IMG/VR virus record: IMGVR_UViG_3300032116_000025
Reading direction: 5' to 3' (one strand)
Source: a virus
Length of the DNA: 64,000 nt
Both the position numbers and the translations under genes were made by a program. The stretch's first letter is position 1. Every line of letters begins with the position of its first letter. Positions 13,730-46,115 of this stretch are shown in pieces. The notes under the pieces are model-generated. The model saw only the letters and a program-made list of their open reading frames with translations. It was not told the origin of the DNA and ran no database searches.

Positions 13730-14088
13730 TGGCCCCTCCCAGCCGCCAGCATTGCTTGGCGCAACTTCTCAGGGTTGTTTCGTAGATCCTCAACCTCGTC
13801 TGAAAGCCGTTGCTCAAACTTGTCTTGAAGCTCTTGGTACTTGGAGCGGATGTCCGTCAGCTCCTTTTCCAGGCGCTCTTTCTCGGCCTGAAGCTCGCGG
13901 GCCCGAGTCTGCGCCTCCATTAGAGCGCGGTCGTCTGCTTCGCGAAGAGGGTCGACTACCGTGACGCCCTTGAAGCGATCATGAACTAGTACGGATACCG
14001 CGACGAGGAGCAGCAGAGGGGACAGTAGGACCACCCACCAGTTTTCTTTGAGCCAGGGGTATCCTGTCATTCGCCACCAACGCTTCAT
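13726..14088 (-). CDS. Rz/i-spanin-like protein
   Basis: Single N-terminal TM helix, then a long coiled coil; near a holin-like gene. Confidence 0.5.
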   Translation of the reverse strand: MKRWWRMTGYPWLKENWWVVLLSPLLLLVAVSVLVHDRFKGVTVVDPLREADDRALMEAQTRARELQAEKERLEKELTDIRSKYQELQDKFEQRLSDEVEDLRNNPEKLRQAMLAAGRGQ

Positions 14089-14717
14089 ACGGCTACCCGA
14101 GATGCTGGAACAAGCGTGGTTCTCTCAAACCCGGTTACAGGCGCAAGCACCGTGTCTCCGCCTCTGGCCGCGCCCGGCCGCCCGGGAACAGTGGCTCCTG
14201 CGGAAGGCTGAATCCCTGAGCTGCTAACAGCACGCCGCGCCTTAATCGGGCTCACTGCCGTCCCAGCCATAGCAGGAGGCTGCGGTGCAGCTTGCGCAAG
14301 CGCGCGAGGAGTCATCTCTACCGTTGCCGGGCTGGCAGTGACACTCTTGATGTACTCCGGCGTGTAGCGGTGCTCGCCCCCCATATAACCCTCGTGGGTC
14401 TTGAGGGGCTTACTCATGTCGTACTTTACCGGCGTAGACTCAAACCGGTTAACGAGGTCCGACTTAGGGCCTGCCCACGCTCGCTCTGCGCTGCGTGCAC
14501 CCCGGGCAGACTCCGCTACGTTTAAGGTGGCCTTTCGGGCAGCAATGGGAGTGCTCGTGGCCCCGCCAGCCGCTAGCTCCCGCACACCCTGAAGTACCGT
14601 TGGATGCACGCGGGCGCCCTGCGCAGCTCTACTCTCAAGGACAGCAAGAGTCCGCGCTGCGCTGACCGCGTGTTTTTCTAGCTCATCAACAAAAGAGCTA
14701 AAAACAACGCGGTTCAT
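14085..14717 (-). CDS. Hypothetical protein with N-terminal FVDELEKHA motif
   Basis: 210 aa, coupled on both sides; Ala/Arg-rich. Confidence 0.75.
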   Translation of the reverse strand: MNRVVFSSFVDELEKHAVSAARTLAVLESRAAQGARVHPTVLQGVRELAAGGATSTPIAARKATLNVAESARGARSAERAWAGPKSDLVNRFESTPVKYDMSKPLKTHEGYMGGEHRYTPEYIKSVTASPATVEMTPRALAQAAPQPPAMAGTAVSPIKARRAVSSSGIQPSAGATVPGRPGAARGGDTVLAPVTGFERTTLVPASRVAV

Positions 14718-15136
14718 TATCCCACCTCGGTCTGGCTTGGCGTTCCTTTTAAGGCTGCCTTGACCTTGTTGAAGCCGTAGTCAGCAAACTGACCACAGGC
14801 CGCGCCCCAAGCGGCAAACACCAACAGCCTACCGGCGCCTTCAATGTGCTGCTCGGCAATGTACGTGATGATTGCCTCCGGGCGGATCGGGATGAGGACA
14901 GCCATTAGTGCCCCCGTCCAGATAGGCGTCATAGGCAGCACCAGCCGGTTGATGATGAGATTCCGCTTCCGCAAAGCCTCACCTACTCGCTTGGCGTCCT
15001 TCATCGTAGGAGTCGGCTCAGCGTCCTTGTGTCCCCAAGCGACATCAATGACGGTCTTCACCAACTGCGTAATGCCCGTGGCCGCAATTGCGATTAGCAG
15101 TGCTTGCCAAGAGTAGAGAAGCTCAAGCGGGTTCAT
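14717..15136 (-). CDS. Holin-like membrane protein
   Basis: 139 aa, about 3 hydrophobic helices, basic C-terminus. Confidence 0.5.
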   Translation of the reverse strand: MNPLELLYSWQALLIAIAATGITQLVKTVIDVAWGHKDAEPTPTMKDAKRVGEALRKRNLIINRLVLPMTPIWTGALMAVLIPIRPEAIITYIAEQHIEGAGRLLVFAAWGAACGQFADYGFNKVKAALKGTPSQTEVG

Positions 15137-15145
15137 GGCTACGCC

Positions 15146-17665: not shown

Positions 17666-17679
17666 GTTCTATCTCCAGA

Positions 17680-18345
17680 TCAGAAACGCCACTCCCAGCG
17701 AACCTCGATCGAGAACACGCCGGTCTTTTGAATTGAGTCAAACGTGTCGTACGCAATCATGTGGCCCGTGGGGCCCGGGTAAGCACCTGCTCCGCCGTTG
17801 GGCAGCGTTGGGTCTGCCGAACTCTTATACAGGCCAATCTCTGAGAGCGGAACAGAGGTAAACCCGCCGAAGTTAATGTCGGTCTCGCTAAACACCGCGA
17901 TAAACTTTGTCCGCGTTACCGCGTCAAACGTTCCGGGCGTAGAGATCTGACGCATCCAAAGCGGCGTGGGTCCGCCATAATCAACTACGGCTGCCGGACG
18001 CTCTAATCGAGCTACCGTGACGTCAGTATCTGTCTGAGCTTGGTGGGGCGCGCCAGCGTACTCGTACCCGCCCGGGTACAGGTTAGCGTACGGAGCTAGG
18101 AAGGCGTTGGGAGAAATCTGCCTAGTTCCTCCAAGACCAAACCCAACGTACCGAACTACGGTGTCTTGCGTCCGCTCGATAAACGCACCCGGACCCAGCA
18201 CCTTTGGCGTGATGACCTCCGCCAGAAACTGACGACCCGTGTTTACTACGATGTTATGCGAGCGGTGGTGTCGCTTACGCTTACCGCGCTCCATAAGGTC
18301 GATCTCTAGGTTAAATCGAACCTCTACGTCTTCGATAAACTTCAT
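17680..18345 (-). CDS. Baseplate / tail-fibre attachment protein
   Basis: HNIVVNTGRQFLAE, LSEIGLY and C-terminal EVRWEWRF, typical of myovirus baseplate-associated proteins. Confidence 0.6.
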   Translation of the reverse strand: MKFIEDVEVRFNLEIDLMERGKRKRHHRSHNIVVNTGRQFLAEVITPKVLGPGAFIERTQDTVVRYVGFGLGGTRQISPNAFLAPYANLYPGGYEYAGAPHQAQTDTDVTVARLERPAAVVDYGGPTPLWMRQISTPGTFDAVTRTKFIAVFSETDINFGGFTSVPLSEIGLYKSSADPTLPNGGAGAYPGPTGHMIAYDTFDSIQKTGVFSIEVRWEWRF

Positions 18346-18352
18346 GCGCTTC

Positions 18353-22567: not shown

Positions 22568-22589
22568 AAGCCGGTGCTAGGATACGCGG

Positions 22590-22907
22590 ATGGCCGTGTT
22601 TAGACCACTACCGGTTGGTTTGGCAAGGAAACTGATCGAGGGCATCCAAGATGAGTTGACGCCGCTGGCTGAAAGCCGGGCGGGAATGATTAAGTCTCGT
22701 CCATGCCCCAGGTGCAAAAACGCGATGCACCCGTTTCTAAACAGCCAGCACGCGTTCTCTCCAAACGATCCCCTTCCGCGCTTGCACGCAAGGTGCACGG
22801 AGTGCGGGCTAGAGTGGGACCCGGTGTCTAACCTCATCTTAAACACCGGGGACCCGTCAAAGGTTACCGATCCGGTGCCCATTATCAGGCCGCGTGACCC
22901 AGCATAG
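22590..22907 (+). CDS. Small zinc-ribbon protein, antisense to the structural operon
   Basis: CPRC...CTEC; extended -10 TGCTAGGAT 6 nt before the ATG. Confidence 0.65.
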   Translation: MAVFRPLPVGLARKLIEGIQDELTPLAESRAGMIKSRPCPRCKNAMHPFLNSQHAFSPNDPLPRLHARCTECGLEWDPVSNLILNTGDPSKVTDPVPIIRPRDPA

Positions 22908-23532
22908 ATGCGGTTGCGATGTCACCGAGAATCCCAGCGGGAACGGTTGCGTAAGTGCCAAACGCTTTTAGCAGCCGGCTCTTAGCCGCAGAGACCTCGC
23001 TCTCAGTAGCCCCGGCCGCCCTAAGTTTGTTAATTGCCTTTGCGGAAGCCCACCCCTCAGCGCCCAAGATTGGCGTAGTAGAGGCCAGGGCAATTACGGC
23101 CCCGATGGTTCTGTGAGACGGTGATGATCCCATCATTCCTAAGACCGTCCCGCCTACCGCTCCGACGGTAGCAACGCCCCGAAGACCCGAACTTTGCAGC
23201 AACTTACCAAACCCACTGCGGTCAATCTCCGCGTGGCCTAGCTCATGGGCTAGGATCCCAGGGTCCTCCAAGGATCGAACCGACACGTAGGGCTTGCCCC
23301 CGGTGTTACTGTAGTAAGGGCCTTCTCCGCTACCTTCATGCTGGTATCGAACCTCTACGGCTTCTCCCTTAAGCAGCGCCTTACGCAACTCAGCGCGCCG
23401 CGCGTTGTCGGGATCAAGTCGCAGAACCCCAGGGGTCATTGCCTTTCGAAGCAGCTGTGAGGCTAGCGTTCCAAGGACAGACTCCTTGGACATCTCGTCA
23501 GAAAACGAGCTTAGTGCTCGGCTGGAGATCAT
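22885..23532 (-). CDS. Membrane-associated zinc metallopeptidase-like protein with FSDEMSKES leader
   Basis: ILAHELGH, two hydrophobic helices, then AEGWAS (third zinc ligand Glu). Confidence 0.7.
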   Translation of the reverse strand: MISSRALSSFSDEMSKESVLGTLASQLLRKAMTPGVLRLDPDNARRAELRKALLKGEAVEVRYQHEGSGEGPYYSNTGGKPYVSVRSLEDPGILAHELGHAEIDRSGFGKLLQSSGLRGVATVGAVGGTVLGMMGSSPSHRTIGAVIALASTTPILGAEGWASAKAINKLRAAGATESEVSAAKSRLLKAFGTYATVPAGILGDIATASMLGHAA

Positions 23533-27530: not shown

Positions 27531-27544
27531 GACGGCCTATCCTA

Positions 27545-28539: not shown

Positions 28540-28559
28540 GGGAGGACTGTACCATGAAG

Positions 28560-31163: not shown

Positions 31164-31165
31164 GG

Positions 31166-32414: not shown

Positions 32415-32454
32415 GGCCAGATGTTAACTCAAATGCCGGGCGGCGGGCAGATCG

Positions 32455-34386
32455 TCATACGCCGTACTCAGACCGACTCACGGTGCCCAACGCTTCCTCT
32501 AAGTCAACGTGGTCCAGATCCTTATACTGCTCAGGCTTTGACATCACGTACTTGGGAAGTACCCGGTGAGCAATTCCGGCAGTACCGTGGCCCCTAGCTG
32601 GCCGTAGGTAAGTAGACCCAGGAATGATAGAGTCTGGTCGCCGAATTGCGATCTCTGTCCCTTCAACCTCATAGTCGCGCGATGGCTCTAGGTGCCTAGC
32701 CAGCTCTTCTTGGAACTTTTCCCGACGGTATGCTGCAAGAGCCCCAGTAGCCGCTCGGTTTAACCCGGCGGACTTTGTATACATAGGTTGCCGCGCATAC
32801 TCAGCGCGGGGAGGCTTATCAGCATTTGGAGTCCGGTTCTTTTCCGAGTACAGCGCCCGGGATAGCTGGCTATCCCGATACGGGCTAACCGGATCGTTTT
32901 CCTCTACCTCTCCCTGTTCTTCTCGACGAACCTCTTCAAGCACCCGGTCAGCCAGCGGAGCAAACAGGTGCTTACTGGCCGCAGCCGCCTTTAAGCGTCG
33001 GTGTGCATCATGACGCTCGGGGTTCTGAAACAAGACTACCCGCTTAGTCTTGTCCGACTTTGCGAGGTCTTTTGGCATAATGACGGCCCGGATCTTTTGC
33101 GGATTGAAGTTTACGTCCTTGTACGCGTGCGCAATGAAGTTGGAACACATGACCGTGTTCTTGTCGATCCGCTTGTTTAGCTCAGTGCTCGGCTTTAGCC
33201 CTGCCTTCTCTGCAAGGTAAACCTGGGCAAAGAACGGGAAGTTTTCGTACTTAAACTTGTCGCCCTTAGCCGCAAGCTCTACTGAGCGGCGAACTGCTTC
33301 TTGACGGGTTTTTGTGTCTACCTGTGGACGGACTACAAGAGCGTCGAGCCCTTCGACTGTCTTTGCAAGGGGTCGCGTGTGCAGCTTGTCGTTGAGCATT
33401 TCAACGACCTGCCCCTTGCCAACGTAAATCCCCGTGTGAGCGTGATCCTTGTTGACCGAGTAAGAAAAGGTCCGAAAAACCTTGTCTTTTGCTCGGTCTA
33501 AAAGGCTTCCTTCGGTCAGAGGACGGCCCATCGAAGTTACAACGATGTCGCCGGGCTTAAGCTTCTTGTGGACGTCCGAAAGGTCGGTAGTGATCTTAAA
33601 CCCGCCTACGTCTGCGGCAGACTTCTGGCCTTCTTGCCGTTTAGCCATTTCAAGAAGACGCGTTCCTTTTGCAGCGATTGCGCGCGCCTGCTGCTCGTTC
33701 TGGGGCACAGGCTCGCCCCACGCCTTTGCTGTGAGGGCCAGACGAGTCGGCTCGCCGTTAGGCTTCTTCAAGGGAGGCAGCGGGCTCTGCCCGTAGAAGC
33801 GGCGGGCCCACGAGCCCTTTCGCTTCATGTCCTTCGTCGACATCTCATCGACCGGCTTCTTTACGCCGGGCTTGAGGTCCTTGCTTTCGCCGCTGCGCTC
33901 AAAATGACGACGCCCCGCTTCGGTAAGACCGCCCTCGGGGTTCTTGTGCTTGGCAAGCAGGGCAAGCTTTTGAAACATGGTATTCATCCCAGCCTCTTTG
34001 CGAGCTTCCTGTGCGGCGTCGGTGTTCGCCACAAACTGCTGCCCTTTGCGGGACGCCTCGACCTTCTTTTTGTTGGTGGCCGCCTTCTGCCCCGGGGTGA
34101 GCTTGTCCCATGCCTTCTCGGGCAAGTACCGCCGCATAGTGCCGTCCGGCTTCTCGGCGGGCTTACCGTCTGAGGTCGTCCACTTCTGATCGGTCCACTT
34201 TGCGAGCGACTTCTGCGCGCCCGTGCGCGGGCCCTTGTAGCCACCGCCAGCCGCTTCGTACTTCTGCGCCACGAGCTGCGCCTTACGCGCAGACCACTGG
34301 CCCGGCTTACCGCCGTCTCCAGAAGCCATGACCTGGGACTTGATGCGGTTGCGAAGCTCAGGCTTCGTGTAGTTCTTTTCCGTCAT
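32455..34386 (-). CDS. Multidomain polyprotein-like ORF: DUF5872-like + DUF6321-like + permuted papain-like (YaeF/YiiX) amidase + tail modules
   Basis: GGKPGQWSARKAQL; KHKNPEGGLTEAGR; LKPGDIV...HTGIYVG...CSNFIAHAY; K-x-A motifs at the junctions. Confidence 0.7.
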   Translation of the reverse strand: MTEKNYTKPELRNRIKSQVMASGDGGKPGQWSARKAQLVAQKYEAAGGGYKGPRTGAQKSLAKWTDQKWTTSDGKPAEKPDGTMRRYLPEKAWDKLTPGQKAATNKKKVEASRKGQQFVANTDAAQEARKEAGMNTMFQKLALLAKHKNPEGGLTEAGRRHFERSGESKDLKPGVKKPVDEMSTKDMKRKGSWARRFYGQSPLPPLKKPNGEPTRLALTAKAWGEPVPQNEQQARAIAAKGTRLLEMAKRQEGQKSAADVGGFKITTDLSDVHKKLKPGDIVVTSMGRPLTEGSLLDRAKDKVFRTFSYSVNKDHAHTGIYVGKGQVVEMLNDKLHTRPLAKTVEGLDALVVRPQVDTKTRQEAVRRSVELAAKGDKFKYENFPFFAQVYLAEKAGLKPSTELNKRIDKNTVMCSNFIAHAYKDVNFNPQKIRAVIMPKDLAKSDKTKRVVLFQNPERHDAHRRLKAAAASKHLFAPLADRVLEEVRREEQGEVEENDPVSPYRDSQLSRALYSEKNRTPNADKPPRAEYARQPMYTKSAGLNRAATGALAAYRREKFQEELARHLEPSRDYEVEGTEIAIRRPDSIIPGSTYLRPARGHGTAGIAHRVLPKYVMSKPEQYKDLDHVDLEEALGTVSRSEYGV

Positions 34387-35345
34387 GTGGTCCTAATCGC
34401 AAAGTCAATCTGCGGCTCTTGAATACCAAACTCGTCTTGAACCACAAGCGCGGGGTCAAGCAGATCTACTACGTCTCCGGTCGAAGGCACAAGGATGCGT
34501 CGCACAAATCCGGTACCGTCGATGCTGATGTCCACGGACATTCCGCGGATGAGGCGGATCTCGGCGTAGCCGTTGCGGTCGGTTTCGATTTGCGCGTAGT
34601 GCCGAAAGATGCCCCAACGCCGAGTCTGGTCAACTACGGTGTTCGGCAAAAATGGATTTGCAAAGGTAATCCGGCGCTGCTCAATTGCGTAGCCAGACAG
34701 GTCTGCAAGACGCACGTACCCAACGATTGTTTTTGACGTGGGGATCTTCTGCGCTTGGTTGGCAGGAAACGGAACGCCAACACCCGTAGTCTTTAAGGTT
34801 ACGTTGTGTCGAAACTCTATTCTGTACCAAAAATCTCGGTCGCTATTTTGGTCAGTGTAGAAATACTCGTGCGTGCCGCCCACCAAGATTGTGTCTTGAT
34901 CTTGGCCTACAGCAGCCGCGCCGGTTAGCCCAAGAAATGCCGCCGCTGCGCTTTCTAGGGCTTCTACGCTGGCAGAAGATCCGGTCGTAACCGTAGAAAT
35001 TTTTAGATAACCACCGTCGTCAACTGCCGTAAGAAGGGGCGTAGCCGCAGAAATTGCGGCGGCCGCCTGTGCCGTAGTAACTGGGTCCGGGTCGGCAAAC
35101 GTCACGTTAACCGTAGAGACGCCGTTTACTTTCAGCGTGAGCGTTTTACCGTTGATCTGGTGAGGCGTTGCGGCAGTCCCTTTTATTGAAGCAACCGCGG
35201 GTAAGTCTGCGGTTGCTTGCTCGTAAATCCCGTACTGTCCTGTTCGGCTTCGATACCAGCGAATACGGTTGTACGTCAGGAGCGCCGAAGCGATGTCCTG
35301 CACGAAGTAGCTAAGCTGAATCGGTTGGTTGGTTACGACAGCCAC
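34383..35345 (-). CDS. Virion structural protein
   Basis: 320 aa; C-terminus TDRNGYAEIRLIRG resembles part of 31497-32414. Confidence 0.55.
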   Translation of the reverse strand: MAVVTNQPIQLSYFVQDIASALLTYNRIRWYRSRTGQYGIYEQATADLPAVASIKGTAATPHQINGKTLTLKVNGVSTVNVTFADPDPVTTAQAAAAISAATPLLTAVDDGGYLKISTVTTGSSASVEALESAAAAFLGLTGAAAVGQDQDTILVGGTHEYFYTDQNSDRDFWYRIEFRHNVTLKTTGVGVPFPANQAQKIPTSKTIVGYVRLADLSGYAIEQRRITFANPFLPNTVVDQTRRWGIFRHYAQIETDRNGYAEIRLIRGMSVDISIDGTGFVRRILVPSTGDVVDLLDPALVVQDEFGIQEPQIDFAIRTT

Positions 35346-35356
35346 GGCGTCCTCCG

Positions 35357-35761
35357 TTACTTGGTCCGCTTCTCATCAGGACGGAACTGTAGCGTAGGGT
35401 CCGCCTGTGGATCTAGGTCTGTGCGCGGTGTCTGCGGGTTCTCGGGCCCGTCATCATCGCGCATTGCCTGCATCGGCGTATCAAGCGGTCGCAGCAGCGC
35501 GGGGTCCGCTTGCGGGTTCAGGCCGGTAGCAGTTGTCTGCACCGACGCCGGGCCGGGATCGTCTTGGTGGTAGCTGCTTACGTCCGGGCTGAAGGCAAAA
35601 CCTTCTGGCAGGAAAAGGACAACCTGCCCATCAGCCAAGGTAAAAACTTTTACCTCGGCAAGCCCAGCGACGATAAAGACCTGTAATGGCTGGGGATTTA
35701 GGCCGTAAGTGTTCTGCGTCCCGCGCTGGTTCAGCCCCGCCGTGAGCGTAGTGAACATCAT
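35357..35761 (-). CDS. Hypothetical protein with short L[ND]PQADP repeats
   Basis: 134 aa, coupled start. Confidence 0.6.
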   Translation of the reverse strand: MMFTTLTAGLNQRGTQNTYGLNPQPLQVFIVAGLAEVKVFTLADGQVVLFLPEGFAFSPDVSSYHQDDPGPASVQTTATGLNPQADPALLRPLDTPMQAMRDDDGPENPQTPRTDLDPQADPTLQFRPDEKRTK

Positions 35762-36246
35762 GGCGGTAAGATCGGGGCCTTACGCTTGGTCTGAACACCA
35801 GCCTGCGTTGTAACGGTGTCGCCGGGCGGGCCATTGTCTGTCTCTAGCGGCCACCGCTGACGGATCGTGGTGCCGTCATCGTCGTAGAGCACAAGCTCCT
35901 GTGTGCTGAGGTTGACCTCAAGGCGGTTGATCGCCGTCTTTCGCAAGACGGCAACCGCGTCAAGTAGGTCATACTCACCAACCAGCACGTCGCAGGCAAA
36001 CATATCCTGGGCGGGAGTCAACACTGTCGCGTACCACAGACCGGTCTGGTCCGGGGTAAACTCGGCGTAGTAGTACCCAGAGCCAATCTCCGACACCGTG
36101 AGCGGCTGCGCGGAGAGCGCGTCTTCTCGAACCAGCGCCTTTGTAAACGAGGCGTTTGCTAGGCCAGTGAGCGGGCTGATGCCGTCTACGTCAGTGACGT
36201 AAAACGGAACCTTCAGCGTCTCGTTGATGCCTGCTGTGAGGGCCAC
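35758..36246 (-). CDS. Putative virion protein
   Basis: SEIGSGYYYAEFTPDQTGLW, LVLYDDDGTT. Confidence 0.55.
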   Translation of the reverse strand: MALTAGINETLKVPFYVTDVDGISPLTGLANASFTKALVREDALSAQPLTVSEIGSGYYYAEFTPDQTGLWYATVLTPAQDMFACDVLVGEYDLLDAVAVLRKTAINRLEVNLSTQELVLYDDDGTTIRQRWPLETDNGPPGDTVTTQAGVQTKRKAPILPP

Positions 36247-36267
36247 GGCGACATCTTACCGCAAATA

Positions 36268-36924
36268 CTAGTACTTGCCTACGCCGCGCGGGTCCCACTC
36301 AGGAGGGATCGTCTTGCCGTCACGCCAGACCTTTTCGGGCTGCGTCTTGAGGCCAAGCACGGCAACTCCGTACTCCATCACCACGCGCTTCCAAATGCCC
36401 TCACCGGGGTCACTTGGCTTTTGCCCGTTGGACTGCCGATGTCCCCAGATGAACTCGATGGGCATCCCCGCTGCGCGGCCGTTGTCCACAAGCCACTTCA
36501 GCGCAGCGCGGAAAGTGTCAACAGCTTCATCGGTAAGTGGGCTTGGGTTTCCACCCCATACCGCAGTGGGCTTACTGAGCTGGCCCGGATAGCTGCCTTC
36601 GCATTCCAACCCAAGAGAGAAGGCGTTTAGCTCGTTGCCGTGGTAAAGGTACCAGTCCAGCGGGGCTGCGGCAACAAACACCCCATCACGAAAGGCAGTT
36701 ACGTGCGCAGGGATATTGAGAGCGCGGCGGTGCGCTTTGGCTCGGTCAGCGGCAGGCCCGAAGACACACGCTGTCTGATGGATGCCGATTCCGGTGATCG
36801 TCTTGGGGTTACGAACAGCCGTCTTGCCCGCGACGACCTTCGACGTGTTGACGACCTTTCCGTTGACTTGTTTAGCGGGGAACGGATTCTTTTGTTCTGA
36901 TCGAAGGTCGAGAAGGGTAGGCAT
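36268..36924 (-). CDS. Endolysin, N-acetylmuramoyl-L-alanine amidase (Amidase_2-like)
   Basis: IGIHQTA, PAH, SLGLECEG, WGHRQS..KPSDPG; start MPTLL at 36924 follows the upstream stop. Confidence 0.85.
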   Translation of the reverse strand: MPTLLDLRSEQKNPFPAKQVNGKVVNTSKVVAGKTAVRNPKTITGIGIHQTACVFGPAADRAKAHRRALNIPAHVTAFRDGVFVAAAPLDWYLYHGNELNAFSLGLECEGSYPGQLSKPTAVWGGNPSPLTDEAVDTFRAALKWLVDNGRAAGMPIEFIWGHRQSNGQKPSDPGEGIWKRVVMEYGVAVLGLKTQPEKVWRDGKTIPPEWDPRGVGKY

Positions 36925-36925
36925 T

Positions 36926-37846
36926 TCAGTTCCCCTCGTTGATGGTCTGGCGCGACAGAATATCGCAAGAGACAATAGCCGGTCGGTCGGAGAGCGTGGT
37001 GTGCGCGGGGTCAAACCCGATCTCAAATGAGACGTAGTACCCCGCCACAAATCCCGCGGCAGCCGCGTTTCCTGTACGGTGGACAACCCGCGTCAGGAGC
37101 CCGGCATCATCGTAGGTGTCGTCAAGCGTAAGAGTGCCCGTAGGCGGCGCTGTTACGTCTTGAGAGCCACCGTTGAACACGGTGTAGTTGATGACCCACC
37201 GTACGGTTGCGCCGGACTGGTTGGTGTTGACGTTCTTCGTCCAATGGATGTGGAACGAGGCGTCGGAGACGTAGGATGTCGGGATCTTGCAGTACCCGTA
37301 CACCTTGTCGATGTCCTTCTTGTAGTGAAGGACGACCAAGGTGCCCATCAACTCGACATCCGGAGCAATGCCAGGCACGAAAGTCGCGCTGGTTGGGGTA
37401 ATCCCTGGGGTGTGGATGACGCGCGTTGCACTCTCGGTGGCGAGGTCTCCTACCGCTTGGTACGTCCACTTCGTGCCGTCCCACTTCAGCAGATCACCAA
37501 CCGCCGGGGCAGCCGCGTCTAAGGGGCGGGTGTCGAGCCCCTTTACAGTCGCCGATTGGATTCCGGTACCGAGAGCGGTTTCGACATCGTTCGTTAGCTG
37601 GGTGATGCCGCCAGCCGCCCCGCCAGCAACCTGATCCGCGAGCCAATCAAGGGCGTCGGGAACGTTGTCGGGCGGAGGAGCGCCCCAGTCAGAGGGGTCG
37701 TCTGGAGTGTAGGGAAACGGGTCGAATTGCGCGCCCCAGGTGTCGATGTCTACCCGCAGATCAAAGATTTCGCTCTTCAGCCCGCTACCCGGACGAAGTA
37801 GATGCGGGTGGATGGCGCTGTATTCGCGAAACCGTTTGATCGTCAT
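36926..37846 (-). CDS. Fibre/whisker-like virion protein
   Basis: ITQLTNDV...AAPAVGDLLKWDGTKW phage fibre repeat; start at 37846 after GAGGAG. Confidence 0.6.
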   Translation of the reverse strand: MTIKRFREYSAIHPHLLRPGSGLKSEIFDLRVDIDTWGAQFDPFPYTPDDPSDWGAPPPDNVPDALDWLADQVAGGAAGGITQLTNDVETALGTGIQSATVKGLDTRPLDAAAPAVGDLLKWDGTKWTYQAVGDLATESATRVIHTPGITPTSATFVPGIAPDVELMGTLVVLHYKKDIDKVYGYCKIPTSYVSDASFHIHWTKNVNTNQSGATVRWVINYTVFNGGSQDVTAPPTGTLTLDDTYDDAGLLTRVVHRTGNAAAAGFVAGYYVSFEIGFDPAHTTLSDRPAIVSCDILSRQTINEGN

Positions 37847-37856
37847 AACGCACTCC

Positions 37857-38300
37857 TCACGACGCGACCTCAAACCACCTGTAGGTCACACCCAGCGCGC
37901 TAGGAGCCCCGGTGTGTACGATCTGAACTCGCAGATACAGGCCCGCCGCGATCTGCCCGGCGGTGGTCGCGTCTAACGTGCCGTTGTAGTCAAACGGAGC
38001 CAAAGGCATCTGATCGACGTACGTGGTTAAGACGGCTCCCGCTCCACGCCCGAGGATGTCATCTACATCCACTACTTGGAGAGTCACGGTGTCGCCTACA
38101 GAGGCACCCCGTGACCAGAAGAACCCGCCCTGAAGCCTCACCGCCTGTTCTAGGCGCAGGTCAAAGGAGTAGGTGCCTGCGGCAGGGACGGGACACAGTT
38201 GCCCACAAAACCGCGCACCCTCCGCAGAGTAGGCGTAGGCGCTCTGAGCGACTACCGGAGCGCCATCTTGGCCGCGCAGCCCGCCAGCAATAGTGCCCAT
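37857..38300 (-). CDS. Putative virion protein
   Basis: 147 aa, beta-rich, GDTVTLQVVDVDDILG. Confidence 0.55.
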   Translation of the reverse strand: MGTIAGGLRGQDGAPVVAQSAYAYSAEGARFCGQLCPVPAAGTYSFDLRLEQAVRLQGGFFWSRGASVGDTVTLQVVDVDDILGRGAGAVLTTYVDQMPLAPFDYNGTLDATTAGQIAAGLYLRVQIVHTGAPSALGVTYRWFEVAS

Positions 38301-38938
38301 CAGACGAACTCCTGGTATCCACGAGCAATCGCGTACTGTCGCGGGGTGGCCGTAGAGACAAGCGCCGTAATCAGGTTGTCTCTAATCCGCATGATCAAGC
38401 GGTCCGTAGACCCCTCAGTCAAAACGATAGGCGTGTCAAAGGTAAACGTAAACTGCAAGTAATCAGACTGCGCTGAGATTGCGTTTACCAAGTTAACAAA
38501 GTCGTCGGCGTAGTTCAGGTAGTCGCCTGCTATCCGAATAGGCTCTGCGGCAATCGGTACGGTGTTACCGCCCTGCACCGCCTCGATTTGAATACCGTTA
38601 GTAAGGCCCGTGGTAGTAGCTCCGTACTCGCGGAAGTCAGAGGTGGCTAACTCAAATCCGTCAGCCTCAATGACTACACGAAATCCCGTGATCCACTTAG
38701 TGGCACCCGCCACCGCATTAATAGAAAACTCTACCGGGGTGACGGACCCGTTTACTCGCTGATCAGACGAACCGGCGTTTGTGAGAAACTCTCGAAACAG
38801 CCGAAGGTTTGATAAGTCCTCGGGTGGCACGCCTTTGCTGGTTTCAGGGAGTACCTGCACTAGCAAAGCATTAGACGGCGTGACTACGGCTGTGCGCCCC
38901 GTCCCGGTCCCGTCATGGATTCGCGTTTTTACACTCAC
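38300..38938 (-). CDS. Putative virion protein, DGTG-leader paralog 3
   Basis: IHDGTGTGRTAVVTPSNALLV. Confidence 0.6.
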   Translation of the reverse strand: MSVKTRIHDGTGTGRTAVVTPSNALLVQVLPETSKGVPPEDLSNLRLFREFLTNAGSSDQRVNGSVTPVEFSINAVAGATKWITGFRVVIEADGFELATSDFREYGATTTGLTNGIQIEAVQGGNTVPIAAEPIRIAGDYLNYADDFVNLVNAISAQSDYLQFTFTFDTPIVLTEGSTDRLIMRIRDNLITALVSTATPRQYAIARGYQEFV

Positions 38939-38943
38939 GGCTG

Positions 38944-39549
38944 TCAGGTGTCGGGGCGGTAGTACGTCCGCGCTACAATGTTGATGTTTGCTGCGGTTGT
39001 TCCCGCTGGAGGCTGTACAAGCAGGCCCACGCTTGATCCTGTTGTAAGGATGCGGCCCGCCTCAATAATGAGCTGGTTTTCCCCCGTAGACTTAATCGGG
39101 AACTGTGATCCGGTGCCGCCGGTCAGGGTGTCAAAGTTTACTGCTGTGATGGTGGCAAAGCTGCTCTTGTAGAACAGGCCTAACGGTGTTTGAGCAGAGC
39201 CGTGGTTAATGTTTGTAAGTCCCGCGGCGCTAGCGTTTGTGATGATGGTGCCTGCCGTGGGGTTGCGGCTGATTGTAAACAGCCAGTCTCCCGTGCCACC
39301 AGTCACAGTTCCAAACATTACTCGAAAGCGGTCTATGATGAGATCGCGCGGGGAGCTGTTGACAATGTAAAGCACCGCCGCGTTAGACACGCCGGTATAA
39401 GAGAGAAGTCCCGTCCCAATAGCAAACGCCTCTCCCTTTAGGGCAGCCTCCCGCTCCTCTTCCACTGACGAGGCGGCGACCTCAAGCCGGTTGGTGCTGT
39501 CTACTTTTGCGGCGTAACCAAAGCCGGTGCCGTCTTCAATGCGGGCCAT
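38944..39549 (-). CDS. Putative virion protein, DGTG-leader paralog 2
   Basis: IEDGTGFGYAAKVDSTNRLEV. Confidence 0.6.
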   Translation of the reverse strand: MARIEDGTGFGYAAKVDSTNRLEVAASSVEEEREAALKGEAFAIGTGLLSYTGVSNAAVLYIVNSSPRDLIIDRFRVMFGTVTGGTGDWLFTISRNPTAGTIITNASAAGLTNINHGSAQTPLGLFYKSSFATITAVNFDTLTGGTGSQFPIKSTGENQLIIEAGRILTTGSSVGLLVQPPAGTTAANINIVARTYYRPDT

Positions 39550-39552
39550 GGT

Positions 39553-40128
39553 TCATTCTCCTGCGACGTACCCGGTAAACCCGGTGTAGATGTTAGCGGT
39601 CTGCGCGCCGTTAAGCTGGCAGGTTACGATCAGGCTTGCGTTGCGGGGGAGAGTAAGATTGACCGTACCAAAGACTCGGCTAGAGGCGGTCTGCGTCTGG
39701 TACAGCACCGGAGTACCGGCAGGCGTCCATGTGGGGCTGGACTTGGCGTCAAACGCAAAGATGCGGGCGTCACCAATCCTTCGGTTGGTGACGGTTACGT
39801 TTGTGCCTCCCGTGACGCTAGACGGGTTGCCGTAAACGCGCATTAGCGCGTTTTCCGTAGGCGACCCACCTGCCACACCGATGCCGATAAACCATGCAAC
39901 GACAACCACATCGGAGGCCTCGTTGTTTTTGAAGTAAAATAGAGGAAACTCTGTGCCCACCGTAACGGACACAAACTGAGTGTTGACGTTGAACGACTCG
40001 CCCGTCATGGAGGCGTCGTCATACGTAGTCTCACCCACGTTCCGAACGCGGAGACGGTTCGACGAGTCTACCTGGGCAAAGTAGCCCTTCCCCGTGCCGT
40101 CCTGGATGATGCCGCCGATGCTGCTCAT
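39553..40128 (-). CDS. Putative virion protein, DGTG-leader paralog 1
   Basis: IQDGTGKGYFAQVDSSNRLRV. Confidence 0.6.
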   Translation of the reverse strand: MSSIGGIIQDGTGKGYFAQVDSSNRLRVRNVGETTYDDASMTGESFNVNTQFVSVTVGTEFPLFYFKNNEASDVVVVAWFIGIGVAGGSPTENALMRVYGNPSSVTGGTNVTVTNRRIGDARIFAFDAKSSPTWTPAGTPVLYQTQTASSRVFGTVNLTLPRNASLIVTCQLNGAQTANIYTGFTGYVAGE

Positions 40129-40397
40129 AGGGGGTCGTCCTCTTCTGTAATGGCCTCAAGGTGGCGGCGGATCGCCCCCAACTCCGTGAGTATCTTGCTT
40201 AGTAGCATAGTCGAGTTTATCGACTCAACTGCCTGCGCGTTCAGGTTCCCTTGGGTCAAGATGTCCGCGCTGATCCCCTCGGAATTGACGATGGTGGCTT
40301 CAACTTGAAGCCGGTACACGGAGCCGTCGTAGACAACGCCTACGAGGTTCCCTGTTGAGTCTACGAGGACACTCGCGGGGCTCCGGCTCATACCCAC
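40125..40397 (-). CDS. Small putative virion protein
   Basis: 88-90 aa, coupled, ends in an amphipathic helix. Confidence 0.6.
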   Translation of the reverse strand: MGMSRSPASVLVDSTGNLVGVVYDGSVYRLQVEATIVNSEGISADILTQGNLNAQAVESINSTMLLSKILTELGAIRRHLEAITEEDDPL

Positions 40398-40873
40398 GTC
40401 CTAGTGCGGTTAGTCTCAAACACGCCGCTGTACGAGATGGCGTCTGTCAGCGTTAGAAGCACGGTGACTCCATCCATGTCGTACATCTTCCAGACCTCGG
40501 TGACCGGGAGGATACCCGTGTATGAGGTAGTCAGCTCGACAATCTTTTGTGTCTTGCCGCTGTCCTCGTACCAGATCTCCGACGTAGGAAGGATGCCTGA
40601 GTACACCGTCTCTTTGTAGGCTCCGCTGACAAATCCATCGGCGGGACCGTCATCAATAAAATGGATCAGGTCTCGAAGCGCCTTGTGCTGCGCCTCTGTA
40701 ATGCCGCCCCCAGCACTCCTCGGATTGAAGTTTCCGATAGAGTCGCGCATGACGAAGCTGGTGCCGTCGTAGTTGAGGGCACCATCCTGCGTCGGGCCGA
40801 TGGCGTTGGTGATGAGGCGGATCTCCTCATCCTCAATTAGCGCACCGGGGCGTCTATCGGGGGTCCTAGGCAC
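40388..40873 (-). CDS. Putative virion protein
   Basis: GTG at 40873 (MPRTPDRRPG) overlaps the upstream stop; repeated Y[ST]GILP.[ST]E.W. Confidence 0.6.
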   Translation of the reverse strand: MPRTPDRRPGALIEDEEIRLITNAIGPTQDGALNYDGTSFVMRDSIGNFNPRSAGGGITEAQHKALRDLIHFIDDGPADGFVSGAYKETVYSGILPTSEIWYEDSGKTQKIVELTTSYTGILPVTEVWKMYDMDGVTVLLTLTDAISYSGVFETNRTRTWV

Positions 40874-41426
40874 GCTTGCTCTTCTTCTTTCGCGGCTCTT
40901 CCGGCAAAGGCTCCGGCGGCGCTTGCGCGGCAAGCTCTTCTGCTAAACGACGCTCTTTGATGGAAGCTCCGGGGCGGAGTCCCACGGGGCGCGGACCTTC
41001 GTCAGCAACCGGTGCCTCGGCTTCTGCGGCGCGCGCCGCAAGGGCTACCCGAAGGGCCTCGGCTTTCCGTTCCTCGTCGTCCCTAAACTTCTTGACGAGC
41101 TGCACCGCCGCTTCCGCGCCGGATACCTTCCCCGTCTGAGCCATGCGATTGTTGTCCGCCTGCATGGTGAGGTTGGTCATCATTTGATGGGCACGCTCAA
41201 CGTACTTCTTGATGAGCTTTGCCGTCTCAAGATCAAACTTGCCCTCGTCCATCTCGCGGTCGACGTGCTTGGCAAGACCCTCCACGGACTGCGCCGCTTG
41301 GCGGAAGGCTTGTGCAGCCCCCTCCAAGCGGTACAGATCCTTGGTTGCGGCTTCTAGGGCGTCGTCAAGACGGCACCCGATCTCGTGTGCCGTCCCGACC
41401 TTTACTTGTGCTTTTTCAATGCTCAT
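40866..41426 (-). CDS. Coiled-coil hypothetical protein
   Basis: 186 aa, helical, basic C-terminus. Confidence 0.7.
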   Translation of the reverse strand: MSIEKAQVKVGTAHEIGCRLDDALEAATKDLYRLEGAAQAFRQAAQSVEGLAKHVDREMDEGKFDLETAKLIKKYVERAHQMMTNLTMQADNNRMAQTGKVSGAEAAVQLVKKFRDDEERKAEALRVALAARAAEAEAPVADEGPRPVGLRPGASIKERRLAEELAAQAPPEPLPEEPRKKKSKRA

Positions 41427-41432
41427 TGGTTA

Positions 41433-42986
41433 TCAGGGCTGGCGATACGGGATCACGCAGAGCACGTCGCCCAGTTTGACGGAGAACTCAAACTTGAGTT
41501 GCGCCGCCGTCGCAAGGCTGGTGCCGGGGTAGTAGTCGTTGTTTGCTGAAGCATCAGCGCCTGGACGAAGAAGCTCACCGTTGAGGTAAACATCGTAGTC
41601 GAGCGTAAAGCTACCGGTGCTCATGTCCGGCAACGCCGTGTCGAGGTTGCCGTCAGCGAGGCTTACGTCGGCGTCGGCAACGGTAGTGACCGTAACGTTA
41701 GAGTACACCTTTGCGGCGCGATCCTTCGCGTAGGATGCGTTGATCGCAGCGAGGAGGGACACCTCACCAAAGTTCGCCTCAAATGCGTTCCACTCCGCCG
41801 TGGTGTCAGACAGCTTGATGCCGCTGGTCTGCGCCCACGTCGAGCCGGTCTGGTTACCGTCATCGAGGTACAGCTCACCCGCGCCAAGGATGCGAAGGTC
41901 GTTCGTGGTGGTGCTCTCGATGAGACCCGCCGTCTCACCTACGTTGATGCGCTGACCGCCGGTGTCTACCCGGATGCCCTGGTCGAAGTCGTTGATGACC
42001 GCCGACGAGTCGAAGGTATCGACATCGCCCGACACAAGAAGTGTGGTCGTGCCGCCAGCGCTGCCCTCAGTGATCCGGAAGAGGGTCGCCTCAAGGTCGT
42101 CGCGGATCTCCCAGTAAAGGCCAGCACCCTCGATGTCGAGGATGGCATTGGTGGTGAGGTTGACCGGAGTCGCGCCTTGGTTGTCGTACGCGACCTGGCG
42201 CGTCTCAGACGACGCCGACGGCACATCAACCTCAGCGCCCTTCAGGAAGTCCTGCTCGGTAAGGTCCTCAAGCGCCTTACGCGTGACGGAGGTGTAGTTG
42301 ATGACCTTGTTCTCAACGTCCGCAAACGGAACCGCCTCAAGGTCGTCACCGGTCGCGTTGATGCGCACGAACGAGAGCTGCGCCCGGTTCGGCGTCGTTC
42401 CCGTCATTGTTGAGCCGTCGGTACTCGACTCGGTCTGGAACAACGCGTACACGACGCGGTTGCTCGACAGGACAGGATCACGCGTCGAGGCATCATAGAC
42501 GCCACAAAGGTTCTTCGGGCTGATGGCAGTCGACCCGGCTACCTCCGCCAGATCGTGAGCGCCAAACGAAGCGTTGAACGCGGCAACAGTGCCCGTTGTC
42601 GTGACCGCACCGATGGCCGCCGTCGTATTTGATGGCAGCTCTCCGAGAGCCAGCACGACGAAGTTGTTACCGGCACCCACCGTAACGTCGGTCAGGCTGG
42701 CTGTGGTAACAAGGACACGCTTACGCTCAAGCGCATGCAGGTCCGTATTCAGGTCGTTGACACCACGCTCTGAGCCGAGGTCAAGCGCCGACGGCGTATT
42801 GAGGTCGTCGTACCATTTACCCGCAAAGTTATTGAGGAGGTTGTGGACCTGCGACCGCAGTGAGTTGAGGTCGTCCTCGATGTTGACCGTGTTGGTCTCG
42901 TAGTTCGCCAGAGACGGGGTGATGTTGTCCGTGTAGGCATCGGACTTACGGATCTGCGTGTCTTGACGAATAAATGTACGGGCCAT
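41433..42986 (-). CDS. Virion structural protein
   Basis: 517 aa, acidic and Thr-rich, RBS GGAGG; DVYLNGELL..G..NDY module also present in 43014-43709. Confidence 0.65.
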   Translation of the reverse strand: MARTFIRQDTQIRKSDAYTDNITPSLANYETNTVNIEDDLNSLRSQVHNLLNNFAGKWYDDLNTPSALDLGSERGVNDLNTDLHALERKRVLVTTASLTDVTVGAGNNFVVLALGELPSNTTAAIGAVTTTGTVAAFNASFGAHDLAEVAGSTAISPKNLCGVYDASTRDPVLSSNRVVYALFQTESSTDGSTMTGTTPNRAQLSFVRINATGDDLEAVPFADVENKVINYTSVTRKALEDLTEQDFLKGAEVDVPSASSETRQVAYDNQGATPVNLTTNAILDIEGAGLYWEIRDDLEATLFRITEGSAGGTTTLLVSGDVDTFDSSAVINDFDQGIRVDTGGQRINVGETAGLIESTTTNDLRILGAGELYLDDGNQTGSTWAQTSGIKLSDTTAEWNAFEANFGEVSLLAAINASYAKDRAAKVYSNVTVTTVADADVSLADGNLDTALPDMSTGSFTLDYDVYLNGELLRPGADASANNDYYPGTSLATAAQLKFEFSVKLGDVLCVIPYRQP

Positions 42987-43013
42987 GGCTCCTCCGGAAG
43001 AAATGCTAACACA

Positions 43014-43709
43014 TCAGGATGCGGGTTCGAAGTCGATCCAAACCTTGTCTCCGACCTTCGGAGCAAAGGCAAACGTTACGGTGTCGTAGCCCGTGGTGGG
43101 ACCGCCAGACTCTGATGTAGTGTAGTCGTTTAGAGCCCCGGGCTCCAACTGCATCCCGTTGTAGTACACGGACTCTTGGGATGGGCCCGAAGTAACAAAC
43201 TTTAGCGCCGAGGCAAAAACAGTGTTTGCTCCGTCAATCGCCCCCGTTAGCTGCTGGCGATGGAGGCGTACGCCGCTGGGGCTAGGCGCAGCCTCAAAAG
43301 ACGCGAGCGGCTGAATAAACAGTTCATCGTCGGATGTAGCTACGCCGATCTGCTGAAATGCGTCAGCTCCACCAGTCGGAGGGTAGTTGGCGTCCCCCGG
43401 AGCAGCGGGTTTGCCGTCAGTGCCAACGACGTAAACCCTGCCGGGCTGAAGCCCGCTGTAAACGGTGAACGGCGCGGTGCCATGAAACTGGGCAAAACAA
43501 ACTGTCGGAGACAGTTTCTTGATGATCACCCCAACGGCGGGAATACCGGCGGTGATTGTAGCGGAAGTAACCCCCGCCACACGCCAAAGATTCCCGCTTC
43601 GAGGAAGGGTAATCCGAACAGCCTGACCGACAGAATCACTAGGCGCGCATGTCGCGCGCCTAACGATTCGTTCAGATCTGGGTACGGATGCCGGGTTTGC
43701 CTTGTACAT
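43014..43709 (-). CDS. Virion structural protein
   Basis: GAIDGANTVF...VYYNGMQL..G..NDY...FAFAP module. Confidence 0.6.
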   Translation of the reverse strand: MYKANPASVPRSERIVRRATCAPSDSVGQAVRITLPRSGNLWRVAGVTSATITAGIPAVGVIIKKLSPTVCFAQFHGTAPFTVYSGLQPGRVYVVGTDGKPAAPGDANYPPTGGADAFQQIGVATSDDELFIQPLASFEAAPSPSGVRLHRQQLTGAIDGANTVFASALKFVTSGPSQESVYYNGMQLEPGALNDYTTSESGGPTTGYDTVTFAFAPKVGDKVWIDFEPAS

Positions 43710-43712
43710 GGG

Positions 43713-44159
43713 TCAGCACTGCGTCAGGGCAAAGACCCCGTTAGGGTCGAACTCGATGACGTAGTTTACCCCGGTCGGCGGGGTTGTTGGAAAGTCAATG
43801 AAGCAGATGAGGGGGTCGTCGCCCGGCGTAACGTCGCTTCCGCCTATCTGCTTATAGATGATCAGCCCGCTTGGGGCTGCGGACACGCCAGACAACAGCG
43901 GGAACACCACGCTGTCTGCTCGGCACAGCGCTCGATTACCCGGAAGATCTAGCTGGGCACTCCGGTTAACAATGTTAACTCGCTGGTACGTTCCCCCAGA
44001 GACCTCAAACCCGAGGATGTCCGCCACGGTAGTCTGGACATGGTTGAACGCGTATACCGATCCAACCAAAAGCCCTCTAAATACGACAGACGGGCTCACC
44101 CATCCGAGTGAGTCCGTCGCCATCAAGAGCTTAGCGTTGGCGTATACAGCGGAGGACAC
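43713..44159 (-). CDS. Putative virion protein
   Basis: EVSGGTYQRV, PLICFIDF, FDPNGVF pattern of small phage tail proteins. Confidence 0.55.
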   Translation of the reverse strand: MSSAVYANAKLLMATDSLGWVSPSVVFRGLLVGSVYAFNHVQTTVADILGFEVSGGTYQRVNIVNRSAQLDLPGNRALCRADSVVFPLLSGVSAAPSGLIIYKQIGGSDVTPGDDPLICFIDFPTTPPTGVNYVIEFDPNGVFALTQC

Positions 44160-44163
44160 GGGA

Positions 44164-44400
44164 TTACGCGGGTGTCCCGGCTAGAAAGCTGTTGATGTCA
44201 TCGATGACCAGCACGCGCGCCTCAGTTGTATTGCTACGAGCTAGGCGTTCTGATCCCGTTCGTCCACGAAGAACCGACTTCGCGAACGTTACCTCGTCGT
44301 CGATCCGTTTAATTTCTCGCTCGTGCCAGTCGTCTAGCGCAGACTTTAGCTCATCGAGGAGAGCATTTCTTGCCTCTACAGACGCTTGAGAGTCCGGCAT
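44164..44400 (-). CDS. Small helical hypothetical protein
   Basis: 78 aa, directly after the sigma gene. Confidence 0.65.
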   Translation of the reverse strand: MPDSQASVEARNALLDELKSALDDWHEREIKRIDDEVTFAKSVLRGRTGSERLARSNTTEARVLVIDDINSFLAGTPA

Positions 44401-44402
44401 TG

Positions 44403-45221
44403 CTATTCCTTCTTAAGCACAGGGCCAATGATTCGCTCTACGCGCGTTTTTAGGTCATAGGCTCGGTGCGGCGGGATGCCCATCTTCTTTGCGATCTGCT
44501 GCGGAGTAAGCTGAGAGTCGCCCGCGGCGGGAAGATGAAACTCCGCGTACTGCCGTTCTTCCGGAGACATTTTGCTCTTCATAAGGAGAAATGCGTCCCG
44601 AGGAGACGCTACGTCTAGCTCCTCAGTAAGGTCTGTCCCCATGTGCGTATGCACTTCCGGAGAAAATCCCGTCTTTAGTTCCTTGATCCTCTTGATAGAC
44701 ATTCCTGGCAGCTTTTGCTGAAGCTCCAGAGCCGTGGGCTCTCGCCCGTAAAGATCAACAAACTCGTTTCGAGCGTTAGAAAACTCGCTGTATCGTCCGA
44801 TGTTTTCTTTGCTCATGTAAAGTGCGTTTCTGTTCTGGGCTACAAAGTCAGAAACGCGCTGAAAGTTGTTGTTGATGTGTGTGCTCAGCTGTGTCTTCTT
44901 TGCCGGATCGTAAGTCTGAATGGCTCTTACGGTTGCGTTGCGAAGCTCGTTCTTCATCGAGTCATAGGGGATCGCTCCGCCTAAGCTCTTCATGCGCTTG
45001 TTCGCCTCCCTAGAGATCATTGGATCAAGAGAAGTGAGAAGCGGCTCTAGGTGCTCAGGGGTCCTCCCACCTTCGTGCCACGTACGCCACTGGTCTAGTT
45101 CCTGCCCTCGCCTAGACCGCAGCTCCGCATAGCGCTCCTTGGCTTGACGCTGCCGAGCCTCGGTCATGGCGCCCACGGCGGACGCTGACTCCTTGATGAA
45201 CTCGTCAATCGGCTGATTCAC
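44403..45221 (-). CDS. Phage-encoded sigma-70-family factor
   Basis: Region 2 VRAIQTYDPAKKTQLSTHI, region 3 GREPTALELQQKL, region 4 HTH LTPQQIAKKMGI. Confidence 0.8.
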   Translation of the reverse strand: MNQPIDEFIKESASAVGAMTEARQRQAKERYAELRSRRGQELDQWRTWHEGGRTPEHLEPLLTSLDPMISREANKRMKSLGGAIPYDSMKNELRNATVRAIQTYDPAKKTQLSTHINNNFQRVSDFVAQNRNALYMSKENIGRYSEFSNARNEFVDLYGREPTALELQQKLPGMSIKRIKELKTGFSPEVHTHMGTDLTEELDVASPRDAFLLMKSKMSPEERQYAEFHLPAAGDSQLTPQQIAKKMGIPPHRAYDLKTRVERIIGPVLKKE

Positions 45222-45244
45222 AGGGTCCTCCGCAAGCTGATAGG

Positions 45245-45634
45245 CTAGAGCCCGGTGTTCATTGGACCAACGCCAGACAGCCCTTGGGGTTGGGTAGCCG
45301 GTGTGTTCTTGCGTAAGGCGTTCTTTGGAGAAATATCGGGGTTGATTACCCCATCTACAGGCTTTACCGACTTTACGCCCGGAGCCTGAAGCGTCGGCTT
45401 GCCCACGCGAGGAGCAGGCATGGTGCCGGGAACGCCTTTTTGAGACACAAACTTGCCCACGCTTTGAGAGGGGCTTGCTGGCATCTTAAGAGACATCGCG
45501 ATCTTCGCAAAGAAGGGGGCTAGGATGTCCTCCGCAATCTTGTGCTTCCTTTTCTTGTGACGCGCGTTGACCCGCTTTCCGCTCTCGTAAAGGTACTTGA
45601 CAGTCGTTGGCGTCATGATCCTTTCAACGCCCAT
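45245..45634 (-). CDS. Basic low-complexity protein with two K-I-A motifs
   Basis: KHKIA, PFFAKIA; RBS CAGGAG. Confidence 0.65.
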   Translation of the reverse strand: MGVERIMTPTTVKYLYESGKRVNARHKKRKHKIAEDILAPFFAKIAMSLKMPASPSQSVGKFVSQKGVPGTMPAPRVGKPTLQAPGVKSVKPVDGVINPDISPKNALRKNTPATQPQGLSGVGPMNTGL

Positions 45635-46115
45635 TTGAGTGCTCCTGAACGTAGCGTTTTACTGTTTTTTGATCTTCGCCGCGATCAATCATTTCGCGAA
45701 TTGCCTGGATAGCAGATCCGCTAAGTGCTCCACGGGTAACGTTCTTCCCTAGGTCTCCGCCGGTAAGCTGCTTTGTGACTCCCTGCATCGCGCCAGCACG
45801 ACCGCCTTGGATTAAGCCCTTAACCCCCTCGCCTGCGGCAGCCACAAGAGGGTAGGCAACCGTCATTACCCCGGTGGTTTTTGCGTAACGACCAAGCGTT
45901 TTCTTCTTGGATAGCCGCTTAGCTGCGTCCAGAGCTTCATCGTCGCTGATCTCCTCAGCAGCAAGCTTTAGCTCTTCAAAAAACGCAGACCAAGCCGGTC
46001 CTAAGCTGGCTTTCTTTGCGTGACTCATGTGTCGCCTTCCCGCGCCGTGCATACGGTCGATAAGCGTCTGGGCAGAAATGCTTGGGCTTCCGGACCGCGG
46101 TACAAACGTCGGCAT
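45624..46115 (-). CDS. Hypothetical protein with AFFEELKLA motif and hydrophobic Gly/Ala helices
   Basis: HAKKAS...WSAFFEELKLAA. Confidence 0.7.
   Translation of the reverse strand: MPTFVPRSGSPSISAQTLIDRMHGAGRRHMSHAKKASLGPAWSAFFEELKLAAEEISDDEALDAAKRLSKKKTLGRYAKTTGVMTVAYPLVAAAGEGVKGLIQGGRAGAMQGVTKQLTGGDLGKNVTRGALSGSAIQAIREMIDRGEDQKTVKRYVQEHSNGR

Follow-up and report, generated by a model that had tools for sequence, protein, structure and literature searches.

A portable N-terminal tag and a K-x-A code on swappable late genes of an uncultured HK97-type phage suggest a T4-like cut-and-load system

Results

The DNA under study is a window of 64,000 bases (bases 21491-85490) from the 160,725-base genome of an uncultured phage (IMG/VR record IMGVR_UViG_3300032116_000025), in which a simple codon-score caller finds 201 genes over the whole genome. 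Our subject is a short peptide motif built around K-x-A or K-x-S that recurs on six carriers, i.e. otherwise unrelated proteins encoded on the minus strand of the window, and that the original prediction had taken for a Lys-based code by which cargo is addressed to the virion and released there by proteolysis. All peptides quoted in that prediction are present, yet it merged two levels of signal, a long tag of the form F-x-[DE]-E-[LM]-x-K-x-[AS] and a short K-x-A core: the long tag occurs in three of the six carriers and the other three have the short core only. For comparison we used the whole genomes of nine uncultured relatives and of Salmonella phage Arash, which together with three Vibrio phages represents the cultured relatives, and about 170 further head-region loci. 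Positions refer to the window unless marked as genome positions.

The first carrier with the long tag (14085-14717) is a basic, Ala-rich protein of 210 residues with an isoelectric point (pI) of 10.4, located between putative holin and spanin-like genes; its full tag (14667-14699) has K15-H-A17, a place taken by K-T-A and K-V-A in two orthologues. The second (22885-23532) is a Zn-metallopeptidase-like protein of 215 residues with an HExxH motif (23233-23247) and E159, which matches Pfam Zn_peptidase_2 with E 3e-4, weaker than the cut-off. Its full tag (23479-23511) has K16-E-S18 and ends in Ser where its close homologues have Ala, F-x-x-E-[ML]-x-K-[EG]-A followed by [FI]-L-G being present in 7/7 of them. 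On the other strand, the baseplate run contains a small gene rich in Cys (22590-22907, plus), which most relatives keep at this spot. The third (45624-46115), a basic Gly/Ala-rich protein of 163 residues, carries a tag that is one residue short (K50-L-A52, 45960-45989) and that its orthologues have at the same place, and additionally the short form KKAS (46005-46016). The predicted N-terminal propeptides of the first two carriers have 17 and 18 residues, respectively, which agrees with the 10-19 residues of such propeptides in T4, and the leader of the third comprises 52 residues. The carriers are basic throughout (pI 9.2-10.6); two of them were queried in Atlas, which returned only a weak glycine-zipper lead.

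In the 201-gene proteome the strict long-tag pattern matches only 14085-14717 and 22885-23532, against a mean of 0.01 in shuffled sequences. A non-iterated profile made from 20 sites of relatives, with this genome held out of training, singles out exactly four proteins, which score 21.5-26.6 bits (E<0.005), i.e. 14085-14717 (25.6 bits), 22885-23532 (22.8 bits), 45624-46115 (26.6 bits, two orthologues being among the training sites) and the product of a gene outside the window (genome 136562-137185), and the next best site scores 12.3. The profile does not find the long tag in 45245-45634 or 32455-34386, and the site in the sigma factor described below reaches 6.3 bits (E about 5). An iterated version of the profile was discarded as it drifted onto RNA polymerase orthologues, and two further tag-like sites were set aside, one in 44164-44400 whose Lys is lost in orthologues and a weak, non-conserved one in the terminase. 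Across 186 related loci there are 44 tag matches versus 0.8 after shuffling, 27 of which are N-terminal and lie on proteins of 20 unrelated clusters.

The remaining carriers have the short core. The product of 32455-34386 is a modular protein of 643 residues consisting of DUF5872, DUF6321 (Pfam, NCBIfam), a permuted papain-like domain and a tail, with K-x-A at its joints (33988-34002, 33961-33978 with MFQKLA, 33613-33627 and 32980-32994) and also in the tail (32764-32778). The number of K-x-A sites in this protein is not enriched (7 vs 7.4 expected); however, the start of one homologue, M-K-I-A, falls exactly on K255, a full tag opens three stand-alone papain-like homologues, and K-x-A/S is kept at the remaining joints in homologues. 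As the joints thus coincide with the starts of homologues, it is the position of the sites, unlike their count, that backs the original prediction. In other DUF5872 homologues (P0152-P0190), which are proteins of 2000-4600 residues, the module is flanked directly by K-S or K-A, which suggests that other lineages equip it with a different protease code. Genome C1:138108-140039 (L001:8109-10040) encodes another permuted papain-like (C92) domain, a paralogue of that in 32455-34386.

Homologues appear to support K-x-A more weakly in the other two proteins than at these joints. The phage sigma factor (44403-45221; TIGR02479, E 2.5e-4), a homologue of Arash gp10, has a variable N-terminal extension with K10-E-S-A (IDEFIKESA, 45183-45209), and N-terminal K-x-A is present in the sigma factors of 6/9 genomes versus 2.4 expected. 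In two relatives the sigma factor is fused into larger proteins of 807 residues (G011 gene 97), with a long N-terminal extension containing an internal tag, and 628 residues (G007 gene 75). The basic, Pro-rich protein of 129 residues encoded by 45245-45634 has two sites (HKIA, 45533-45544, and PFFAKIA, 45497-45517), both of which are kept, with the middle residue changed, in its single orthologue, which is thin evidence; the corresponding slot in relatives holds unrelated genes beginning with K-L-A. In one relative (G002) this slot contains a module that recurs in a modular protein of 1437 residues of the present genome (C1:120923-125236, L004:5924-10237), which consists of an inorganic pyrophosphatase domain (PF18823) followed by low-complexity modules.

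The short core stands out in the proteins of the head module, which lies outside the window and comprises the terminase gene, the gene for an HK97-type capsid protein (genome 143191-144303) and unknown genes between the two. K-x-A is the top motif in head proteins, and K-x-A-[A/S/G] occurs there at 40 sites versus 8.9 expected, with Ser 3.7-fold enriched directly after Ala and T/I/L/V preferred at the middle position. The controls R-x-A, E-x-A and the reversed motif are flat in this module, and K-x-E is found 22 times versus 18.4 expected. Elsewhere K-x-A-[A/S/G] is at chance, i.e. in tail (6 vs 7.4) and replication proteins (13 vs 11.7) and in early genes. The original prediction had named a lack of enrichment relative to non-virion proteins as an outcome that would speak against it; what we found is enrichment in the head and chance levels in the others. 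Enrichment had been expected in capsid, portal, scaffold and protease, and it extends to the protease, a scaffold-like protein and other head proteins, all encoded outside the window, while the portal has no N-terminal site. Plain K-x-A gives no signal over the whole proteome and is not enriched in the six carriers taken together (13 vs 14.4 expected). It is also present, at chance rate, near the N-termini of the replication genes at 7520, 8787, 9302 and 10712, so that the claimed absence of the motif from such proteins holds for the long tag only. Taken together, the K-x-A core in head proteins is a real, lineage-wide code of presumed protease sites.

Counted over nine genomes with one member per family, N-terminal K-x-A is found in 10.1/12 head families (3.3 expected) and in 58/123 families whose genes are insertions among the late core genes (33 +/- 5 expected), versus 1.8/17 tail families (1.7 expected) and 193/1079 of all other families (196 expected). 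The slot of 14085-14717 is empty in three relatives (G004, G005 and G012), and 22885-23532 is missing from its slot in at least five (G001, G002, G008, G010 and G012). The view that carriers interrupt coherent gene runs is borne out as far as they are insertions, but the holin, spanin and baseplate-J labels of the interrupted runs lack Pfam and PHROG support: none of the putative holin, spanin-like, baseplate and protease genes is recognized by Pfam, PHROG or NCBIfam. Comparison of slots among relatives also confirms that carriers are interchangeable, i.e. swappable late genes. In G004, G005 and G012 the slot of 32455-34386 is occupied by a helicase-like gene of 500 residues, which resembles Arash gp217, a protein abundant in virions; its product may be a helicase carried as cargo and has no more than a minimal K-L-A or K-L-S at its N-terminus. 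Elsewhere in the window, fourteen genes (35357-44159), among them one with Amidase_2 (36268-36924), lack a homologue in each of the ten relatives used for comparison and form a lineage-specific, tail-fibre-like block.

The candidate prohead protease (genome 148359-150128, outside the window; 729 homologues) is encoded upstream of the genes for an all-helical protein and the HK97-type capsid protein. Its N-terminal domain was modelled with a predicted local distance difference test score (pLDDT) of 85, and the model superimposes on T4 gp21 (5jbl) with Z 8.9 and a root mean square deviation (rmsd) of 2.8 over 132 residues and on assemblin from varicella-zoster virus (1vzv) with Z 7.5, unrelated folds reaching at most 5.6. 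H119, H120, S177 and D264 are invariant in 86 protease sequences, and, as judged from sequence, His, Ser and Asp stand in the catalytic order. By both predicted fold and residue order the product is a candidate T4-gp21/assemblin-type (clan SH) protease. Moreover, it matches gp19 of Bacillus phage G (E 1e-8), described as head maturation protease (PMC12484599), and head-region proteins of phage G carry K-x-A as well. K28-x-A30, located just before the protease domain, is kept in 9/9 aligned proteases, gp222 of Arash included, and most aligned relatives have K-x-A sites after the domain. Many protease homologues have 920-1020 residues and contain intein and homing-endonuclease domains.

Adjoining the protease gene is that of a scaffold-like protein (genome 147382-148290), modelled as all-helical without a compact fold, as in scaffolds (predicted template modelling score (pTM) 0.37). 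Its best-conserved stretch, residues 168-176, ends a helix of 41 residues and resembles the long tag. In 97 orthologues F/Y/M168 (91%), E171 (86%), L/M172 (80%) and I175 (75%) are better kept than the presumed cut-site residues K174 (51%) and A176 (44%), so that the helix should have a role apart from cutting. The cargo tags reproduce this helix face, Ile included, which suggests that the tag may dock cargo by scaffold mimicry. A tag-like helix also precedes K33 of another protein from the head region (genome C1:140052-141434), which is conserved and gives a weak match of the rubrerythrin/ferritin-like kind.

In Arash, proteins seen in particles with five or more peptides contain 59 K-x-A-[A/S/G] sites versus 39 expected, and the rest of the proteome 24 versus 22. 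The detected set includes basic, lineage-specific proteins, e.g. gp100, which starts with M-E-K-Q-A-S, as well as the sigma homologue gp10 and both polymerase subunits. The present phage also encodes a homologue of Arash RNA polymerase Gp206 (2067 residues; genome C1:1089-7292, L003, outside the window), which has no N-terminal K-x-A and is depleted in K-x-A overall (5 vs 12.6 expected). The K-x-A site of the capsid protein is kept in 125/127 relatives, and capsid-gene matches in IMG/VR number at least 376 for this HK97-type phage family. Related capsid genes (L281-L293) are found on contigs whose bins point to Myxococcales, Deltaproteobacteria, Anaerolineales and other groups, but such bins are unreliable for host assignment.

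Discussion

The observations made here comprise motif statistics, conservation, portability, the predicted protease fold and the match of the tag to a helix of the scaffold-like protein. We consider it fairly probable that they reflect a T4-like cut-and-load system, which would cut after Ala rather than Glu. Cleavage and its exact bond, packaging, the addressing role, ejection and any cargo function we infer as follows. K-x-A|[S/A/G] would be the recognition site of the prohead protease, with Lys at P3 and Ala at P1, at which the enzyme may cut the scaffold-like and other internal head proteins many times during head assembly and trim its own N-terminal extension. Interchangeable late genes in the lysis, baseplate and sigma-factor regions bear the presumed site either N-terminally or where modules join, and in many of them a predicted amphipathic helix, F-x-D-E-L-x, stands just before it. 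Their products would co-assemble into the prohead core, be cut free, remain in the mature head and probably be ejected into the host.

How cargo finds the head is less clear. It may be, and we put this forward tentatively, that the code has two parts, a helix copied from the scaffold-like protein that docks cargo where the scaffold itself binds, and behind it the K-x-A release site for a protease of undescribed specificity, used by a widespread HK97-type phage family to load swappable enzymes and multi-module chains into heads. An explanation that we hold to be just as plausible is that K-x-A is a cut site only and the upstream helix, instead of being an address, serves extended substrate recognition or spacing, so that cargo enters the head by other contacts. 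Weak upstream preferences at head sites (hydrophobic P5, Glu at P4/P6) would fit this, as would the many inserted genes that have K-x-A without a helix and the situation in Arash, which has the core motif and in whose proteome the profile finds no long tag. Most of the dense sites in head proteins, however, are without a helix, which is thus not needed for the motif, and in the scaffold-like protein it is the helix face that is conserved more strongly than Lys and Ala.

A second alternative concerns the bond. The HK97 protease cuts after Lys, and the capsid protein is HK97-type; moreover, Lys is the strictest position of the motif and Arg is no substitute for it in this genome, so that cleavage as K|x-A might be considered. 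We regard this as unlikely, since small residues are enriched after Ala, as in the A|S sites of herpesviruses. The proteases of T4, phiKZ and SPN3US, which cut after Glu, read P3-x-P1 (PMC9026906, PMC10052503). From this reading mode and the small residues after Ala we infer that the bond most likely to be cut is the one behind Ala, which puts Lys at P3, and the "Lys-based" code of the original prediction is thus to be amended, as the enzyme would not be trypsin-like.

It is more doubtful still that K-x-A goes uncut and serves core proteins as a motif for binding or assembly. The capsid chain of phage G was deposited with its N-arm, and the K-x-A-rich head proteins gp220-225 of Arash are detected in particles, but the sites coincide with the borders of the protease's own domain and with joints of the modular protein where stand-alone homologues begin. 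For the capsid-protein site itself a structural, uncut role may apply as the phage G chain starts at residue 1. That the tags go back to recent copying of a DNA start cassette or to chance, and have no function at the protein level, is hardly credible and is rejected for this genome, since, apart from some excess in relative G008 (62 vs 47 expected), codon identity among tags agrees with what codon usage predicts (18 vs 16.7 here, 38 vs 41 in G010), which argues for selection on the peptide, the DNA upstream differs between tags and the tag is kept among diverged homologues.

Besides the missing long tag in Arash, several points weigh against the cut-and-load scheme. Arash gp10 is found in virions without any tag, i.e. 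a tag is not needed for the sigma factor, which probably travels with the polymerase. The particles behind the Arash virion proteome were prepared on a sucrose gradient and probably contained contaminants, and no peptides were published, supplements included. In phage G the deposited capsid chain (residues 1-280, 6.1 A map) includes the equivalent R-V-A. Finally, the Z-scores of the protease model exceed background only modestly, and Foldseek E-values are above 0.01.

If the scheme holds, it would become possible to predict from sequence which proteins a large family of uncultured phages keeps inside its heads or ejects, among them the products of many genes of unknown function. A likely new specificity would be added to the phage head proteases, and the scheme would suggest what capsid-targeting peptides imitate. 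The model is directly testable, as the cultured phages Arash and G share protease and core motif.

Among known systems, herpesvirus assemblin, of clan SH, is the second-best structural match to the candidate protease. Assemblin has Ala at P1, Ser/Ala at P1' and a hydrophobic P3, whereas Lys occupies P3 here, and we know of no portable cargo tag for it. Arash (OQ632216, PMC10585845), Vibrio phages D69/D148/D181 and phage G (gp19) have a homologous protease and capsid protein, all of these except phage G also a homologous sigma factor, and Arash and phage G have K-x-A-rich head proteins. The accessible papers on these phages report no cleavage motif, and our literature searches, whose coverage excluded subscription papers, found none on a K-x-A phage cleavage motif.

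The systems around phiKZ gp175 and SPN3US gp245 (PMC9026906, PMC10052503, PMC5694885) are similar in their three-residue motif with several sites per propeptide, a self-processing protease, as predicted here, and a virion RNA polymerase in the lineage, but differ in cutting after Glu (S/A-x-E, A-x-E). With K-x-A as top head motif and K-x-E near expectation the head proteins do not follow that pattern, S/A-x-E itself having been left uncounted.

In architecture the proposed system corresponds to the one known from T4, i.e. the capsid-targeting sequence (CTS) of internal proteins IPI-III and the protease gp21. Both have a short N-terminal propeptide (predicted here) on basic proteins that are unrelated and poorly conserved, a P3-x-P1 site preceded by two hydrophobic anchors, and a protease of the same (here predicted) fold; in the T4 CTS residues 4 and 7 target and residues 8 and 10 process (PMC9026906). 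The sequences differ, T4 using L/I-x-E whereas P3 is Lys and P1 probably Ala here; the head motif is K-x-A and the E-x-A control is not enriched, L/I-x-E itself having been left uncounted. Further differences are the HK97-type capsid, the dispersal of the carriers, enzymes and multi-module chains included, through tail and lysis operons, and the resemblance of the tag to an internal helix of the scaffold-like protein. The portable N-terminal tag on swappable late genes would work like T4 CTS and gp21, although it is not a member of that system by sequence or specificity.

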